DNA of 64,000 nucleotides from Flavobacterium sp. (GCF_046155325.1 NZ_JBJXDQ010000003.1:4804-68803); one strand, 5' to 3'. Shown: positions 4,797 through 47,935, numbered from the stretch's first letter. Notes: generated by a model not told the origin, from the letters alone. Numbers and translations: made by a program.

Positions 4797-5354
4797 ATGA
4801 AAACCGAAAAAGAAAAAATGATTGCTGGAGACTATTATTTAGGAGGTGATTCTACGTTAGTCAAAGACCGTCGAAAAGCAAAAAACTTACTCCACAGACT
4901 AAACGTCATTGAATATAGAATTACCAAAAAAGCAAAAGAAATTATCCGAGAATTAATTCCAAATGCTGGAAAAAATATTTACATAGAACCACCATTTTTT
5001 TGCGATTATGGCTATAACATTTTTTGTGGTGATAATGTATATTTTAATGTGAATTGTGTGGTTCTTGATAGTGCTAAAGTCACCATAGGCTCTAATGCTT
5101 TTTTTGCCCCTGGAGTTCAAATATATACCACATCTCACCCAATTGAAGCTGCCTTGAGACAAACACACGAAAATGCTTTACCCATTACCATTGGTAATGA
5201 CTGCTGGATTGGTGGCAATGCTATCATTCTTCCTGGCATTACCATAGGAAACGGCTGTGTTATTGGTGCAGGTTCTGTGGTTACAAAAAATATTCCTGAC
5301 AATTCGTTAGCAGTAGGAAATCCCGCTAAAATCATTCGAAAGTTAAATGATTGA
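4797..5354 (+). CDS. Maltose/galactoside O-acetyltransferase family
   Basis: TEKEKM start, PFFCDYGYNI, hexapeptide repeats, VGNPAK. Confidence 0.9.
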   Translation: MKTEKEKMIAGDYYLGGDSTLVKDRRKAKNLLHRLNVIEYRITKKAKEIIRELIPNAGKNIYIEPPFFCDYGYNIFCGDNVYFNVNCVVLDSAKVTIGSNAFFAPGVQIYTTSHPIEAALRQTHENALPITIGNDCWIGGNAIILPGITIGNGCVIGAGSVVTKNIPDNSLAVGNPAKIIRKLND

Positions 5355-5459
5355 TTTTTTAAGTATAAATCTTTTCAACAAATATGAAATCTGTCCCAAA
5401 ACTTCGGGATAAAATCTAAAATTATATTTTACCTTTGACTATTCAATAAAACACAAATT

Positions 5460-5999
5460 ATGGTTTATAAATTTAGAGTAATTCTCGATACCGAAGAAGA
5501 CATTTTTAGAGACATTGCAATACTTGCCAACGATACATTAGAAGATTTACACAATGCTATTTTCAATTCTTTTGGTTTTGATGGTATGGAAGTCGCTTCT
5601 TTCTTCACTTGTGATAATACTTGGAATCAAGAGGACGAGATTCCTATGTTTGATACCGGAGATATTCCTGGTGAGCAAAAAACGATGAGTGATTATTTAC
5701 TCTCTGATATTCTAGATAAAGAAAATACCAAAATAATATATGTGTATGATTTTATCAGCATGTGGACTTTTCTGGTAGAACTGGCAGCAATTGAAGAAAT
5801 AACTACAGGAAATACTTATCCAGAAATGCTGTTTTCTGTTGGTGAAATGCCAGCCGAAGCTATGGAAAAACATTTCATTGCCGATGACGAAGAGGAAGAT
5901 TATAACGAATTTGAAGATGATTTAGACGAAGATGATCTAGACATGTTCGAAAGTGATGATAGCTTTGAAGATTTTGGATTCGAAGAGAACTGGAATTAA
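5460..5999 (+). CDS. pRiA4b ORF-3-like protein with acidic tail
   Basis: RDIAI..TLEDLHNAI..FGF and YVYDF..W pattern; D/E-rich C-terminus. Confidence 0.75.
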   Translation: MVYKFRVILDTEEDIFRDIAILANDTLEDLHNAIFNSFGFDGMEVASFFTCDNTWNQEDEIPMFDTGDIPGEQKTMSDYLLSDILDKENTKIIYVYDFISMWTFLVELAAIEEITTGNTYPEMLFSVGEMPAEAMEKHFIADDEEEDYNEFEDDLDEDDLDMFESDDSFEDFGFEENWN

Positions 6000-6004
6000 A
6001 AAAA

Positions 6005-6038
6005 GGGTTTAAAGGTTTAAGGTGGTTTAAAAGTTTAA
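6005..6038. repeat. GTTTAA-type periodic repeat, left arm of four-helix-bundle cassette
   Basis: ggtttaaa ggtttaa ggt ggtttaaa agtttaa. Confidence 0.85.
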
Positions 6039-6048
6039 TATCGTTTAT

Positions 6049-6458
6049 ATGGCTACAATAACAAAATTCGAAGATTTAGAAATTTGGGAAGAGGTAAGAA
6101 GACTTTCAAAAGAAATAATTTTCATATCTAAAAACACTGAACTAAATAAATATTTTAAATTTAATGCTCAAATTAAAGACTCGTCAGGATCTGTAATGGA
6201 TAACATCGCTGAAGGGTTTGAAAGGAATGGAAACGCTGAAATCCGCCAATTTCTATCCATAGCTAAAGGCTCAGCTGGAGAAACCCGTTCTCAATTATAT
6301 AGAGTTTTCGACAATGAATATATTGATGAAGAAAAATTAAAATATTTAGTTACTGTGTATGAAAATTGAGTATTAAAATTCACAATTTCATCACTTACCT
6401 AAACAAAAAAGACTTCAGAGGTACAAAATTTATAGACCCACAAACCCCAAACTCTTAA
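6049..6458 (+). pseudogene. Four-helix-bundle (23S rRNA IVS/Avd-like) protein, frameshifted near 6365
   Basis: KFEDLEIW..R, QIKDSSGSVMDNIAEGFER, FLSIAKGSAGETRSQL; TGA at 6367, but the shifted frame continues LSIKIHNFITYLNKKDFRGTKF to TAA at 6456-6458. Confidence 0.8.
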
Positions 6459-6513
6459 ACAAACTTAAACTTTTAAACAATTTTAAACGAAATTAAATAA
6501 TCTTAAACCTTTA
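6455..6513. repeat. TTAAAC-type periodic repeat, right arm (inverted relative to 6005-6038)
   Basis: ttaaacttttaaac 6465-6478 is the reverse complement of 6025-6038; ttaaaccttta 6503-6513 is the reverse complement of 6010-6020. Confidence 0.85.
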
Positions 6514-7572
6514 ATGATAAACCTTTTCAACGCCCATATCGATACTTTATCCATTCATAGAGTAGGAAACAAAAGTCGCAACGAAGCACTTTTTTTATCG
6601 GAACAATCTTTTAATTTGAATGACGAAATCGTTCCGTTAATGAAAGAGTATTTCCTCAAACCTTTTAGAGAAAAGGAAGAAAACTATTTTCAATTTGCAC
6701 ATGAAGTTGATTTAGAATACAATGACATGTACACATTAGCTTCGCAACTATTTGAAAACCCAAGTTGTTTACACGAAGTTTCTAAAAAAATCACAACTCA
6801 TTTATTCGAACAATCCAATCATCCACACATCAAAAATGGCGAGGTTTATATTGCCTATTTGACTAACATGAATATCGACAATACCATAGTTGATGCTATT
6901 GGGATTTTTAAAAGTGAGATTCAAACCGACTTTCTGCAATTTGAAGAAAAAGAATCTAACCTTGAAATGATACTTCAACAAGGTATTAATCTTAGCAAAT
7001 TAGACAAAGGCTGCTTGATTTTTAATTACAAAAAAGAGGAAGGTTATAAAATATTAACTGTTGACAGTAATCGTTATGATGCAAGGTATTGGTTAGAACA
7101 TTTCTTATCGGTTGATGCTTTTGAAGACGAAAATTTTATCACTAAAAAATATCTTAAATTCTGTCAAGGCTTTGCCAAAGATGTTGTTTTTCCTGCCGAA
7201 GACAAGAAAGAAGAAGTAATGTTTATGAATCGTAGTGTAAATTATTTTGCAAAAAATGACCAGTTTGAAGAAAGTAATTTCTTGAATGAAGTTTTAGATA
7301 ATCCCGATTTAATTCCGGAATTTAAAAATTACAAAGTAGACAAAGGCGAGAAATACAGTATTGAAGATGTGACTACATTCCCAATTGCTAATGCAGCTGT
7401 TTCTGATGCCAGAAAGTCAATCAAAAACGTTATTAATTTAGATACCCATATTCAAATCAAGTTAGATTTTATTAACCCAGAAAGCGCCGAAAAATTTGTT
7501 GAAAAGGGTTGGGACGAAGAAAAACAAATGTATTACTACTTAGTCTATTTTAATAAAGAAGTAAAAAACTAG
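6514..7572 (+). CDS. Nucleoid-associated protein (YejK/NdpA-like, 37 kDa family)
   Basis: LSIHRVGNK start, DAIGIFKSE, LDKGCLIFN, YWLEHFL. Confidence 0.8.
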   Translation: MINLFNAHIDTLSIHRVGNKSRNEALFLSEQSFNLNDEIVPLMKEYFLKPFREKEENYFQFAHEVDLEYNDMYTLASQLFENPSCLHEVSKKITTHLFEQSNHPHIKNGEVYIAYLTNMNIDNTIVDAIGIFKSEIQTDFLQFEEKESNLEMILQQGINLSKLDKGCLIFNYKKEEGYKILTVDSNRYDARYWLEHFLSVDAFEDENFITKKYLKFCQGFAKDVVFPAEDKKEEVMFMNRSVNYFAKNDQFEESNFLNEVLDNPDLIPEFKNYKVDKGEKYSIEDVTTFPIANAAVSDARKSIKNVINLDTHIQIKLDFINPESAEKFVEKGWDEEKQMYYYLVYFNKEVKN

Positions 7573-7599
7573 ACTGTCAATAAAATAACTGATTTTATC

Positions 7600-7633
7600 A
7601 ATCCTCAATCACCTAGGTAGTTGAGGATTTTTT
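7600..7633 (+). terminator. Intrinsic terminator
   Basis: aatcctcaa/ttgaggatt 9-bp stem followed by a T run. Confidence 0.75.
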
Positions 7634-7682
7634 ATAAAAAACCATCTCGAGGGATAGCTCCAGGGGTATTAGCAAAATAAAA

Positions 7683-7734
7683 GCGACAGATTCACAGATT
7701 TTAAAAAATCTATTTTAATCTGTGAATCTGTGAC
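7683..7734. repeat. Gene-less palindromic element related to the GxxExxY flank
   Basis: acagattcacagatt (7686-7700) pairs with aatctgtgaatctgt (7717-7731). Confidence 0.85.
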
Positions 7735-11394: not shown

Positions 11395-12502
11395 GCTGTG
11401 TTCAACTCATAAGTGCAACAAACTTATTATTTAGAGTTTCAATTGGACTAAGGTAATTAAATTTTCTTATAGGTCTGTTATTAATTGATAATTCTACTTG
11501 TTTAATTCTTTCATTAGTTACATTTCGTAAATCAGTTTTCTTTGGAAAAAATCTTCTAATTACACCTATTCTATTTTCTACAGTTCCTTTTTCTTGCGAA
11601 GTATATGGTGTTGTAAAATAGGTTTTTAGATTAAATCTATTGGCGATTTCAGTATGTCCAGCAAACTCTTTTCCGTTGTCAAATGTGATTGATTTTAAAT
11701 AACTCGAATTGAATATGGAGAGTCTTTCTATTATTTTCTGTGTGACTTCTAATGATGTTTTTCCCTGCAACTTATCTATCATGGTAATTAACGTAGTTCG
11801 GTCTGTAAGGACTAGTAATTCTGATTTGTGGTCTTTTCCCATCATTAAATCTGCTTCTAAATCTCCAATTCTTTTTCTTTGTTCAATAACTGCTGGTCTT
11901 TCACTTATATGCTGACGGTTTAGAATTGCTCCTCGTGTGTCTTTTATATTTCCTCTTTTTTGTCTCCTTTTACCATGTTTCAATTCTTGATAAAACGTCT
12001 TAAAAAGTTTATTTTCTAGCCTATTAGTATGTTTTGATTCCCATATCCACTTATATATTGTTTCATGGCTAACGGTAATCTTTCCTTCTAATTTCCAGCG
12101 CTTTGATATTAATTCTGGACTCCATTTATCCAGAGTCATTTTATCAAATATAGCTTGCTTTAAATCAGGAGTTAATAAAACCCTTTTGTGTTTTTCCTTA
12201 TGACGATTACGAGTTTTTCGCTCTGCATTTGCAGCACAGTATTCGCCAGAACCTCTTCCTCTTTTGGGTATGGATCTTTTTAATTCCCTACCAATTGTAC
12301 TACGGTGAACACCTAGCTGATCGGCTATCTTTGTTTGATTAAAACCAGCTTGTAATAGAGCTTCGATTTGGTATCTTTGCTCAACGGTTAGTTGTTTATA
12401 TTTTTTCATGCAAGACAAATTTAGGCTTTTGACCTTAAACACTTGGGGGATAACTCCAAGTGTTTTTAATTTTATCTGTTGCACTTATAGCTTGAACTTA
12501 CA
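11395..12502 (-). mobile_element. IS30-family insertion sequence (IS4351-like ends)
   Basis: 26-bp imperfect terminal IRs at 11395-11420 and 12477-12502 (19/26 matching); AAT duplicated at 11392-11394 and 12503-12505; encloses the transposase. Confidence 0.9.
11402..12409 (-). CDS. IS30-family transposase
   Basis: HTH (IADQLGVHRSTIGRELKR), WSPELI, VSHETIY, DDE region (GDLEADL, SITFDNGKEF, KGTVENRIG); ATG at 12409. Confidence 0.95.
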   Translation of the reverse strand: MKKYKQLTVEQRYQIEALLQAGFNQTKIADQLGVHRSTIGRELKRSIPKRGRGSGEYCAANAERKTRNRHKEKHKRVLLTPDLKQAIFDKMTLDKWSPELISKRWKLEGKITVSHETIYKWIWESKHTNRLENKLFKTFYQELKHGKRRQKRGNIKDTRGAILNRQHISERPAVIEQRKRIGDLEADLMMGKDHKSELLVLTDRTTLITMIDKLQGKTSLEVTQKIIERLSIFNSSYLKSITFDNGKEFAGHTEIANRFNLKTYFTTPYTSQEKGTVENRIGVIRRFFPKKTDLRNVTNERIKQVELSINNRPIRKFNYLSPIETLNNKFVALMS

Positions 12503-46224: not shown

Positions 46225-46327
46225 TTGAATGTTATAATATTTTCGATAAAAATGAGGTTATTATTTGAAAGTAGCAAATATTTAGTTCCAATAATTTTTG
46301 GTATTTTTACTCCAAATTAATCTCACT

Positions 46328-47935
46328 ATGCCAACAGACGCTATCAGCTATCAAAAATCCGGTTATTTCTCGCCTTTGATGAATGATTATTTAGACCAAA
46401 AATCTAATACAAAGTCTCTCTACAATCGGTTTCCAATTCTTGAAAATTTTGAAGCGCAAGTTCAGGAAAAAAAAGCAAATTATACCCATGAAAATAGAGC
46501 AATATTAGTATCGGTAATAGAATCACAATATGCCAAAATAAATCCTTCTACTGCTACTTTAAACAATATTAAACTTTTAAACAACTCCAATACATTCACC
46601 GTTACCACTGGTCATCAATTGAATTTATTCACAGGACCATTATATTTTTTGTATAAAATTATTTCGACTATAAATTTAACGAAGGAATTAAAATCGAAAT
46701 ACCCCAGCTTTAATTTCGTTCCCATTTATTGGATGGCGACCGAAGATCATGATTTTGAGGAAATCAATTATTTCAATTTAAAAGGTCGAAAATTTCGATG
46801 GAACACCAACAGCTCTGGAGCAGTAGGTCGCTTATCTACTAATGGATTAGACGCTTTTTTTGAAGTCTATTCTAAAGAAATTGGTTCAGGCAAAAATGCC
46901 GAGACAATCAAAACGCTTTTTAAGGAATCATATTTAAAACATTCCAATTTAGCCGATGCCACTCGTTTTCTTGCCAATGCACTTTTTGGTGAATATGGAT
47001 TGGTGATTCTTGATGCTGATAATGCCGATTTGAAACGAACTTTTATACCTTACATCAAAGAAGAATTACTACAGCAAACAGCCTATAAAAAGGTAATAGA
47101 AACCACCCGAAAATTATCAAATTACAATATTCAAGTGAATCCTCGAGAGATTAATTTATTCTATTTAGAAAACAATTTAAGGGAACGTATCTTATTTGAT
47201 CCCTATAGCAATAGGGACGGAAAATATAAAGTAAACAATACGACTATCGAATTTTCAGAAAGTGAAATTTTATCGGTACTAGAAAATCATCCCGAAAAAT
47301 TTAGCCCCAACGTAATTATGCGATCGTTGTATCAAGAAGTTATCTTACCCAATTTGTGCTACATAGGAGGTGGTGGCGAAATTGGTTATTGGTTAGAATT
47401 GAAATCTTTTTTTGATGCTGTAAAAGTATCATTTCCTATTCTTTTAGTTCGGAACTCGGCTCTATTGGTCACTGAAAAGCAAACCAAAAAAGCAGATAAA
47501 TTAGAACTGACTTGGAAAGATTTGTTCTCCAAACAAAAGGATTTGGTTAATACCAAAACAGAGCAATTATCAGAGTTCCCAATCGATTTTACATCTCAAA
47601 AAGAACTTTTGCAAAAACAATTCGAAAGACTTCATGAAATAGCCAATCAGACCGATAAATCTTTTATTGGAGCCGTAGAAGCGCAAGAAGCCAAACAAAT
47701 AAAAGGATTGGTAAATCTCGAAAAACGACTATTAAAAGCCCAAAAACGCAAGCATTCCGAAGAACTGGAAAGAATTACCGATTTGCAAAACGAATTGTTT
47801 CCAAATCAAAGTTTACAGGAACGCCAAGCCAATTTTTCGGAATTTTATAGGGAAAATGGTGAAAAGTTGATCACTACATTGATAGATCAACTGAAACCAT
47901 TAGGAAATAATTTTAATATTATTACACTTTCTTAA
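46328..47935 (+). CDS. bshC: Bacillithiol biosynthesis cysteine-adding enzyme
   Basis: TTGHQLNLFTGPLY, YWMATEDHDFEEI, FSPNV, GGGGEIGYW, LQERQANF. Confidence 0.93.
   Translation: MPTDAISYQKSGYFSPLMNDYLDQKSNTKSLYNRFPILENFEAQVQEKKANYTHENRAILVSVIESQYAKINPSTATLNNIKLLNNSNTFTVTTGHQLNLFTGPLYFLYKIISTINLTKELKSKYPSFNFVPIYWMATEDHDFEEINYFNLKGRKFRWNTNSSGAVGRLSTNGLDAFFEVYSKEIGSGKNAETIKTLFKESYLKHSNLADATRFLANALFGEYGLVILDADNADLKRTFIPYIKEELLQQTAYKKVIETTRKLSNYNIQVNPREINLFYLENNLRERILFDPYSNRDGKYKVNNTTIEFSESEILSVLENHPEKFSPNVIMRSLYQEVILPNLCYIGGGGEIGYWLELKSFFDAVKVSFPILLVRNSALLVTEKQTKKADKLELTWKDLFSKQKDLVNTKTEQLSEFPIDFTSQKELLQKQFERLHEIANQTDKSFIGAVEAQEAKQIKGLVNLEKRLLKAQKRKHSEELERITDLQNELFPNQSLQERQANFSEFYRENGEKLITTLIDQLKPLGNNFNIITLS
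47200..47217. repeat. Short hairpin in frame inside bshC
   Basis: tccctat-agca-ataggga encodes (D)PYSNRD. Confidence 0.6.

Follow-up and report, generated by a model that had tools for sequence, protein, structure and literature searches.

Proteins of the S23p/PF05635 family, which was originally discovered within intervening sequences of ribosomal RNA, are abundant across bacteria and crystal structures of them have been available since 2006; we know of no function for them outside diversity-generating retroelements (DGRs). To our knowledge, the biology of the intervening sequences (IVSs) of ribosomal RNA (rRNA) and of intergenic heptamer arrays is likewise unexplained. In the Coxiella IVS, a 28-bp stem surrounds an S23p open reading frame (ORF), GACAGAT heptamers adjoin the ORF and the sequence is excised by RNase III (Warrier et al., 2016; PMC4990558). 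Intergenic heptamers, GGGAATC in Xanthomonas and GGGGA(C/T)T in Nostoc, have been read as G-quadruplex formers; no gene is named between the arms in that work, and the terms '23S' and 'hypothetical protein' are absent from its text (Rehm et al., 2015; PMC4692102). Here we analyzed a 64,000-nt stretch of DNA from Flavobacterium sp. (GCF_046155325.1, NZ_JBJXDQ010000003.1:4804-68803; the window) and found that the 514-bp spacer between a PRiA4_ORF3-like gene and an NA37 gene consists entirely of one hairpin-armed PF05635 cassette, in which a gene for a four-helix-bundle protein lies between a short periodic array and the reverse complement of that array. We consider it very likely that gene and inverted arrays form one discrete genetic module in Bacteroidota.

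The initial annotation of this locus claimed perfect inner (14-bp) and outer (11-bp) arms, correctly nested and reaching from a few nucleotides past the stop of the upstream gene to the last base ahead of the downstream ATG, and this description is exact to the base. Read from the sequence, the inner arms (6025-6038, GTTTAAAAGTTTAA; 6465-6478, TTAAACTTTTAAAC) are reverse complements at 14/14 positions and the outer arms (6010-6020, TAAAGGTTTAA; 6503-6513, TTAAACCTTTA) at 11/11, and the inner pair is nested within the outer pair around the four-helix-bundle gene. In the ORF list, the upstream stop TAA lies at 5997-5999 and the downstream ATG is at 6514. A repeat search found that the arms continue imperfectly over 6001-6036/6449-6484 (36 nt, 83%), with a second imperfect pair at 6009-6030/6493-6514 (22 nt, 86%). 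Both arms are periodic by Tandem Repeats Finder; the 5' arm has a period of 8 (GGTTTAAA, 3.9 copies) and the 3' arm a period of 10 (5.8 copies). The pattern GTTTAA-N0-4-GTTTAA-N0-4-GTTTAA has four matches in the arms as compared to 0.01 expected across the whole window. Only 12 nt separate the 5' arm from the ATG of this cassette, whose GTTTAA arms we call type A, and the ORF list holds no ORF in the cassette besides the four-helix-bundle gene. We found no Rfam match in 5400-7000, nothing above chance in a sigma-70 promoter scan and no terminator-like sites (GC-rich stem plus T-run) in 5300-7700.

The initial annotation also called for a fold of the region and raised the concern that the arms might pair no better than AT-rich controls. 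Across the whole 526 nt the ends are paired in the fold (z –2.46), and the stretch of the 3' arm at 6479-6502 forms a small local hairpin in the minimum-free-energy structure. When the two arms were joined by GAAA and folded alone, the folding free energy was –30.7 kcal/mol, as compared to –11.8±3.0 with a shuffled 3' arm (z –6.3) and –12.5±3.9 for GC-matched genomic pairs (z –4.6), with 0.2% of the pairs equally low. Measured against 5000 random genomic pairs, the DNA complementarity score of 42 ranks within the top 0.02%, so the concern was not borne out. A chance origin in an AT-rich, low-complexity spacer draws some support from the base composition of the genome (2.75 Mb, 32.8% GC) and from a crude duplex energy (RNAduplex, 110/130-nt flanks) in which the locus is indistinguishable from random pairs (z –0.4); the flank duplex energy is uninformative because the signal of the AT-rich stem is masked by coding sequence and by large interior loops. 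Such an origin is contradicted by the arm-only folds, by the complementarity score and by a layout that is common to 11/11 paralogues and 120+ relatives. The inverted arms are not a chance product.

A survey of flanks, as the initial annotation had advised, returned inverted arms throughout the family. There are 11 PF05635 matches in this genome, and in all 11 paralogues the gene is preceded by a short periodic array and followed by the array's reverse complement, with scores in the top 0.4% of the complementarity controls. The repeat units differ among the paralogues (GTTTAA, GTCGAAA, CAGRTnn, AGTGTTC, TTGTAGG, TAGATAA, AATTGAT and others), and 4/11 are damaged. Three of the 11 lie in textbook operons, at groES/groEL, sufB/sufC and sufC/sufD, where the flanking genes were confirmed by NCBIfam. 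Of 61 genus cassettes, 55 score at the 99th percentile of controls or above and 43 at the 99.9th or above; in the wider protein clade, the 99th percentile is reached by 67 of 78 relatives (55-81% identity; Flavobacterium, Maribacter, Chryseobacterium, Lutibacter, Leeuwenhoekiella, Chitinophagaceae and others). Flanks could be read for 128 cassettes: in 95 both neighbors run in the same direction as the cassette, in another 25 the sense frame upstream is open throughout, and in only 3 does a neighbor run the opposite way. In 108 cassettes, the median distance from the upstream stop to the start of the 5' arm is 4 nt and that from the end of the 3' arm to the next ATG is 9.5 nt; the spacer as a whole is about 500 nt long. 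Existing annotations of F. columnare show a gene labeled 'four helix bundle protein' flanked by gmk and nadD at distances of 34-36 nt, and do not comment on it.

To relate the arms to the genes they enclose, we built a protein tree of the 61 genus cassettes and mapped the junction labels onto it. The labels require 20 changes where the minimum is 18 and shuffling gives 36.5 on average, and this strong clustering indicates that each junction was colonized once or twice. The type-A clade (support 97) is found at PRiA4/NA37, sufB/sufC, sufC/sufD and miaB/regulator junctions and its arms are always of the form GTTT[A/C]A[A/G], while a second clade (support 96) is found at sufC/sufD and nuo with GTCnnAA arms. 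A single junction can also carry different protein clades, each with different arms. The 78 clade members represent several families and 16 junction classes. Two or more GTTTMAR units are present upstream in 62/78 and two or more complement units downstream in 62/78, as compared to 0/39 cassettes from other clades and to 0.27% of windows drawn at random; the downstream array has reversed polarity in 0/78. The gene family is under purifying selection (median ratio of nonsynonymous to synonymous substitution, dN/dS, 0.14) and its synonymous sites are near saturation (median dS 1.24). Because the repeat unit is still recognizable where dS is saturated, the unit itself is constrained. Within each of three clades, comparing the two arms of one cassette gives a better match than comparing them with orthologous arms (permutation p 2e-4, 6e-4 and 7e-3), and thus the arms of one cassette co-evolve.

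The protein encoded at 6049-6369 belongs to the family that the initial annotation had named, scoring 96.1 bits with PF05635 (cut-off 33.8) and 82 bits with TIGR02436 (cut-off 24); in correction of that annotation, the ORF is cut short by a frameshift. The ORF ends at position 94 of the 106-position hidden Markov model (HMM) and the remainder lies in another frame. Of the first 25 residues of the 6366-6458 frame, 23 are identical to the last 25 of the intact 131-aa orthologue L025, and we therefore place a 1-nt deletion in the A-run at 6362-6365, which shifts the frame away from a true stop at 6456-6458 inside the 3' arm. Intact orthologues have 128-131 aa; the window copy ends at residue 106, and the second half of helix 4 is lost. 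A metagenome scan gave no match to the frameshift site with either A4 or A5, and the deletion reflects either a recent loss of function or an artifact of assembly. Elsewhere in the genus, a family member in F. psychrophilum is transcribed and is differentially expressed in biofilm (PMC5787105).

We modeled the structure of the F. franklandianum orthologue L103, to which the window protein is 88% identical, from an alignment of 35 sequences. The model (predicted local distance difference test score, pLDDT, 91.5) has helices at 11-34, 36-58, 62-88 and 94-120. In Foldseek it matched XCC0516 (2GSC; template modelling (TM) score 0.79-0.91, root-mean-square deviation 1.5-1.7) and BT_0352 (2RLD; TM 0.70-0.86), and the next structural matches were Avd (4DWL; TM 0.72/0.86) and then DGR ribonucleoprotein structures. 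The relation to DGR Avd that the initial annotation claimed is thus seen in the fold, and it agrees with the literature on PF05635 and Avd (PMC10053308). The same likeness would favor the idea that the gene is a stray DGR Avd. The whole genome yielded no match to PF00078 (reverse transcriptase), and its 11 PF05635 copies are therefore not DGR Avds; with the neighboring genes also unrelated we rejected a DGR at this locus. Neither a stray Avd nor chance pairing of the arms retains more than a negligible probability in our judgment, given the arm folds, the complementarity, the family-wide recurrence and the genome-wide absence of PF00078.

We then turned to the history of the PRiA4_ORF3/NA37 junction in 57 Flavobacterium species. 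Type-A cassettes are found in this genome, in L025 and, as a decayed copy, in L076. F. franklandianum LB3P56 has an intact cassette at the junction. In 19 species the junction carries types B and C, with TTCAAAGG and CTAAG-type arms and with proteins that are 30-38% identical to the window protein, and L017 has a decayed cassette remnant. Empty alleles, which the initial annotation had proposed looking for, exist, and 35 of the 57 species have short spacers; many of the short spacers are hairpins of ~90 nt with periodic AAGnnnn arms and a short loop. In L089, type-A-like arms (GGTTAAAAG/CTTTTAAAC) are present with no gene, and a global alignment of this hairpin with the window cassette scored 97.7 as compared to 62-83 for controls, while free-gap alignment is too permissive to establish descent. 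Two other observations concern spacers at this junction. The L033 spacer (genome G013) holds a 211-nt insert with GC-rich inverted repeats (TCCTCTCCCC.../...GGGGGGAGGA) that is unrelated to the four-helix-bundle cassettes. The type B cassettes L015, L023, L036 and L039 have a 70-90-nt AT-rich leader from the 5' arm to the ATG, with TTTG...TAATATTT-like motifs in which a promoter of the Bacteroidetes type may be present.

On the NA37 gene tree, the filled or empty state of the junction changes 15 times, counted irrespective of direction (gain or loss), and at least 11 of these changes are forced by well-supported branches; the total was judged no fewer than with shuffled labels (17.8). The sister of this genome (L013) is empty at the junction. 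Between the sister species L088 and L089, the sequences are homologous up to the second nucleotide after the stop and again from 13 nt ahead of the ATG, and all between has been exchanged. Both transposition and homologous replacement via the conserved flanking genes fit these data.

If the cassette were a non-autonomous transposable element, similar to a miniature inverted-repeat transposable element (MITE) or to IS200/repetitive extragenic palindromic (REP) elements, the arms would be terminal inverted repeats, the gene would be cargo that takes no part in movement or RNA processing and the transposase would be encoded elsewhere. Variable presence among species, the same gene-plus-arms unit at many junctions and the existence of gene-less copies would all be expected, and the genome does contain a Y1_Tnp (HUH) fragment. 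However, there is no target-site duplication in the filled/empty comparisons, the whole spacer is replaced and not interrupted, and the copies within the genome have no common arms, unlike a MITE family. The Y1_Tnp fragment has a stop and is not flanked by these arrays, and cargo is not expected to hold a dN/dS of 0.14 together with a clade-specific arm unit. On this evidence we regard a transposable element as improbable. The Y1 fragment itself (G000:C152:9-230; IS200/RAYT-like) is broken, lies at a contig end with an in-frame stop and is flanked by ATTGCAAATCCGCGCTATC, a different repeat, with no heptamer arrays; we rejected it as unrelated to the arrays.

The reading that we favor, by analogy with the Coxiella IVS and with slightly better than even confidence, is that the cassette is read through, its stem is cut by RNase III and the cognate protein reads the repeat unit. 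The cassette has no recognizable promoter or terminator of its own and would be transcribed by read-through from the host gene, on the assumption that PRiA4_ORF3 and NA37 are co-transcribed. The arms would then pair, closing the ORF in the loop as in ORF-bearing 23S rRNA IVSs, and RNase III would cut the stem, separating the flanking cistrons and releasing the four-helix-bundle message. The genome encodes an RNase III gene, and the cleavage step, which is modeled on the IVS, seems to us possible at somewhat short of an even chance. Because the unit is conserved where synonymous sites are saturated, something would appear to read it. Most simply this would be the cognate four-helix-bundle pentamer, whose relative Avd acts in the DGR ribonucleoprotein, and the reading may serve the cassette's own control or its spread. 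We put forward recognition of the unit by its cognate protein tentatively, leaning slightly to the doubtful side.

Several points weigh against this reading. Across 122 stems we counted 424 mismatches, and G:U pairs in the sense orientation were fewer than A:C (70 as compared to 106; p about 0.008). A sense-RNA helix under selection normally shows an excess of G:U, and the shortage therefore counts against the RNA step; either the pairs are nearly neutral and array turnover keeps the arms alike, or functional pairing takes place outside the sense RNA. The initial annotation had proposed an IVS-like cassette inside an mRNA, and this was partly supported; the stem-loop layout was upheld, the cassettes lie in sense among co-directional genes, and the wobble test on the stems went the other way. 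PRiA4_ORF3/NA37 is no proven operon, distant relatives carry terminator-like hairpins in the spacer, and formation and cleavage of the stem in RNA are argued from the Coxiella IVS. The studied copy is frameshifted, and any protein-dependent function has probably been lost from it. The link between protein and unit is a correlation that may reflect co-inheritance with some other reader, and the unit counts of the two arms are weakly correlated (rho 0.21). We saw no target duplication, no enzyme and no recent move, and homologous exchange of spacers could account for spread at one junction.

Arrays of the same kind also occur without a gene. Elsewhere in this genome we found gene-less hairpins with 3-36-nt loops and units matching those of resident cassettes. 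The hairpin at C200:4960-5032 has GTTTAA units and a 4-nt loop, with the G-rich arm first on the sense strand, and fills the gap between two co-directional minus-strand genes. Two hairpins, at C64:3749-3845 and C113:15241-15310, have AATTGAT units, and that at C48:827-906 has CAGATTT/TAGATTT units. In this last hairpin, four TAGATTT units face five AATCTGA units and each unit is U:G-paired on the sense (minus) strand, the wobble being a C:A mismatch on the other strand, which makes it a local exception to the missing G:U excess. Across 61 genus genomes, GTTTMAR x3 has 0-346 matches per genome, counts that are inflated by overlapping matches on long arrays, while a reversed-pattern control has 0-21 and is zero in most. 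The median is 32 in genomes with a type-A gene and 4.5 in genomes without one (p 0.005, uncorrected); among phylogenetically independent pairs, 4-5 point in the same direction and 0 in the opposite one (p about 0.06). This link between type-A gene and array abundance is suggestive of a REPIN-like relation, no more. The richest genome, G032 (L181-L210, e.g. C10:146693-146810 and C15:400-553), accounts for the 346 matches; one of its arrays has ~22 units, and many are joined to GC-rich palindromic modules (GACCCGAGGCC..., GGCGAGCTAAAGCTCGCC) in composites that look like a MITE-like repeat family.

These arrays bear on whether the hairpins act as an RNase III stem at all. They could instead act as DNA or as REP-like hairpins, with pairing over ~450 nt of RNA being non-functional; the arrays would bind protein, or would stabilize the 3' end of the upstream message or attenuate it, and the gene would be a passenger or a DNA-binding partner. 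The stems show no G:U excess, gene-less hairpins with the same units exist (C200:4960-5032, C48:827-906, C64:3749-3845), and GTTTMAR arrays far outnumber cassettes, with some solitary or in composite repeats. Inverted heptamer pairs between aligned Xanthomonas ORFs have, moreover, been described without invoking a gene (Rehm et al., 2015). In contrast, the co-evolution of the arms of a single cassette and their polarity, which is fixed relative to the gene (0/78 reversed downstream), speak against it, the arms surround the ORF just as in RNase III-cut IVSs, and a DNA-only model leaves the strict sense orientation between co-directional genes unexplained. We consider action as DNA or REP-like hairpins rather unlikely. 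A broader proposal is that PF05635 proteins are sequence-specific partners of their own arrays and form with them a transposase-free, self-propagating hairpin system that colonizes transcribed junctions, similar in logic to REPIN/RAYT, whose footprints would be the ORF-bearing 23S IVSs, the gene-less operon hairpins and the intergenic heptamer arrays known from several phyla; this is speculative, and we consider it less likely than not.

The features of the locus are listed in Table 1, together with the operon cassettes of this genome. Two further observations were made in the window. Within 726-1197, a PF13366 (PDDEXK_3, 'GxxExxY') gene at 801-1175 lies beside a hairpin (726-751/758-783) whose right arm (758-783) is directly repeated at 1175-1197, past the gene, and this second small-gene cassette occupies the spacer from a Sua5/YrdC gene to a CCA-adding-enzyme gene. 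Members of the GxxExxY family are likewise known to occur in rRNA intervening sequences. Three copies of TTAAAC (minus-strand GTTTAA) occur at 46559-46582, within the coding ORF 46298-47935 and with no nearby inverted partner, and may be due to chance or may be an in-gene array.

Table 1. Coordinates of the cassette, its neighbors and the operon cassettes of the same genome (window numbering unless a contig is given).
Feature	Position	Strand	Remarks
Upstream neighbor, PRiA4_ORF3-family gene	5460..5999	+	PF07929, E 1.8e-17; stop 1 nt before arm region
5' arm, G/T-rich GTTTAA-type periodic array, period about 8	6001..6047	+	Holds perfect arms 6010-6020 and 6025-6038
Four-helix-bundle gene, truncated, 106 aa	6049..6369	+	PF05635/TIGR02436, HMM positions 1-94 of 106
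Out-of-frame remainder of four-helix-bundle gene	6366..6458	+	LSIKIHNFITYLNKKDFRGTKFIDPQTPNS, then stop 6456-6458 within 3' arm
3' arm, C/A-rich TTAAAC-unit array, reverse complement of 5' arm	6449..6513	+	Holds 6465-6478 and 6503-6513
Downstream neighbor, NA37 nucleoid-associated protein gene	6514..7572	+	PF04245, E 1.9e-56; ATG abuts outer 3' arm
Operon cassettes in this genome	L001 G000:C113:11393-11707; L002, L007 G000:C200:10900-11217, 12132-12437		groES/groEL, sufB/sufC, sufC/sufD

The searchable literature yielded no account of inverted arrays around PF05635 genes other than those in rRNA. New here are the history of one junction across 57 species, the negative wobble test and the comparison of array abundance, as well as the two-way test, which followed one clade across junctions and several clades at one junction, and the measurement of unit conservation against saturated dS. 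If gene and clade-specific array are one module located in essential operons (groESL, suf, nuo), the module would provide a concrete binding hypothesis that sets protein clade against repeat unit and a concrete hypothesis of RNA processing through an RNase III stem in mRNA. Such spacers would be natural, exchangeable intercistronic elements that may set the expression ratios of neighboring genes, and in annotation they should be treated as cassettes and not as ordinary intergenic DNA. The value lies in a testable handle on an orphan protein family, tempered by the broken copy and the inferred mechanism.

Among known systems, DGR Avd (Bordetella phage BPP-1; 4DWL, 8UB7) shares the four-helix-bundle fold with the cassette protein and is a pentamer acting within a ribonucleoprotein. 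In contrast to the DGR, the cassette has no reverse transcriptase, template repeat or variable repeat, and sequence identity to Avd is about 12%. Intergenic heptamer arrays (PMC4692102) resemble the cassette arms in that tandem repeats of ~7 nt lie between aligned ORFs with the G-rich strand after the upstream stop, are often convergent (inverted) pairs and vary in unit number among relatives; the cassette units differ in being G-poor (GTTTAA) and tied to a protein clade. REPIN/RAYT (REP-associated tyrosine transposase) systems likewise consist of dispersed intergenic hairpins of which a few copies flank a conserved gene with the same repeats, and gene-less hairpins with the cassette's repeat were found here (C200:4960-5032; L089). 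However, the cassette gene encodes not an HUH Y1 transposase but a four-helix bundle in which no nuclease or transposase motif is known, its arms are tandem arrays and not single palindromes, and each paralogous cassette has its own unit.

The 23S rRNA IVSs of Leptospira and Coxiella burnetii share several layout features with the cassette. The loop carries an ORF of the same protein family, a long stem arises from terminal inverted repeats, tandem heptamers adjacent to the ORF vary in number among strains, the ORF often decays and transcription is supplied by the host. The cassette differs in that it lies between protein-coding genes (PRiA4_ORF3, NA37) and not in a 23S helix, and in that each arm consists entirely of an array whose unit is specific to the protein clade. 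For the IVS, excision by RNase III has been demonstrated; for the cassette it is predicted, and the cassette family has a dN/dS of 0.14 whereas Coxiella S23p is thought to be unexpressed. Because it is not in rRNA, the element is IVS-like and not an IVS. Taken together, these comparisons place the locus in an apparently undescribed class of IVS-like cassettes, of which it is a damaged member.

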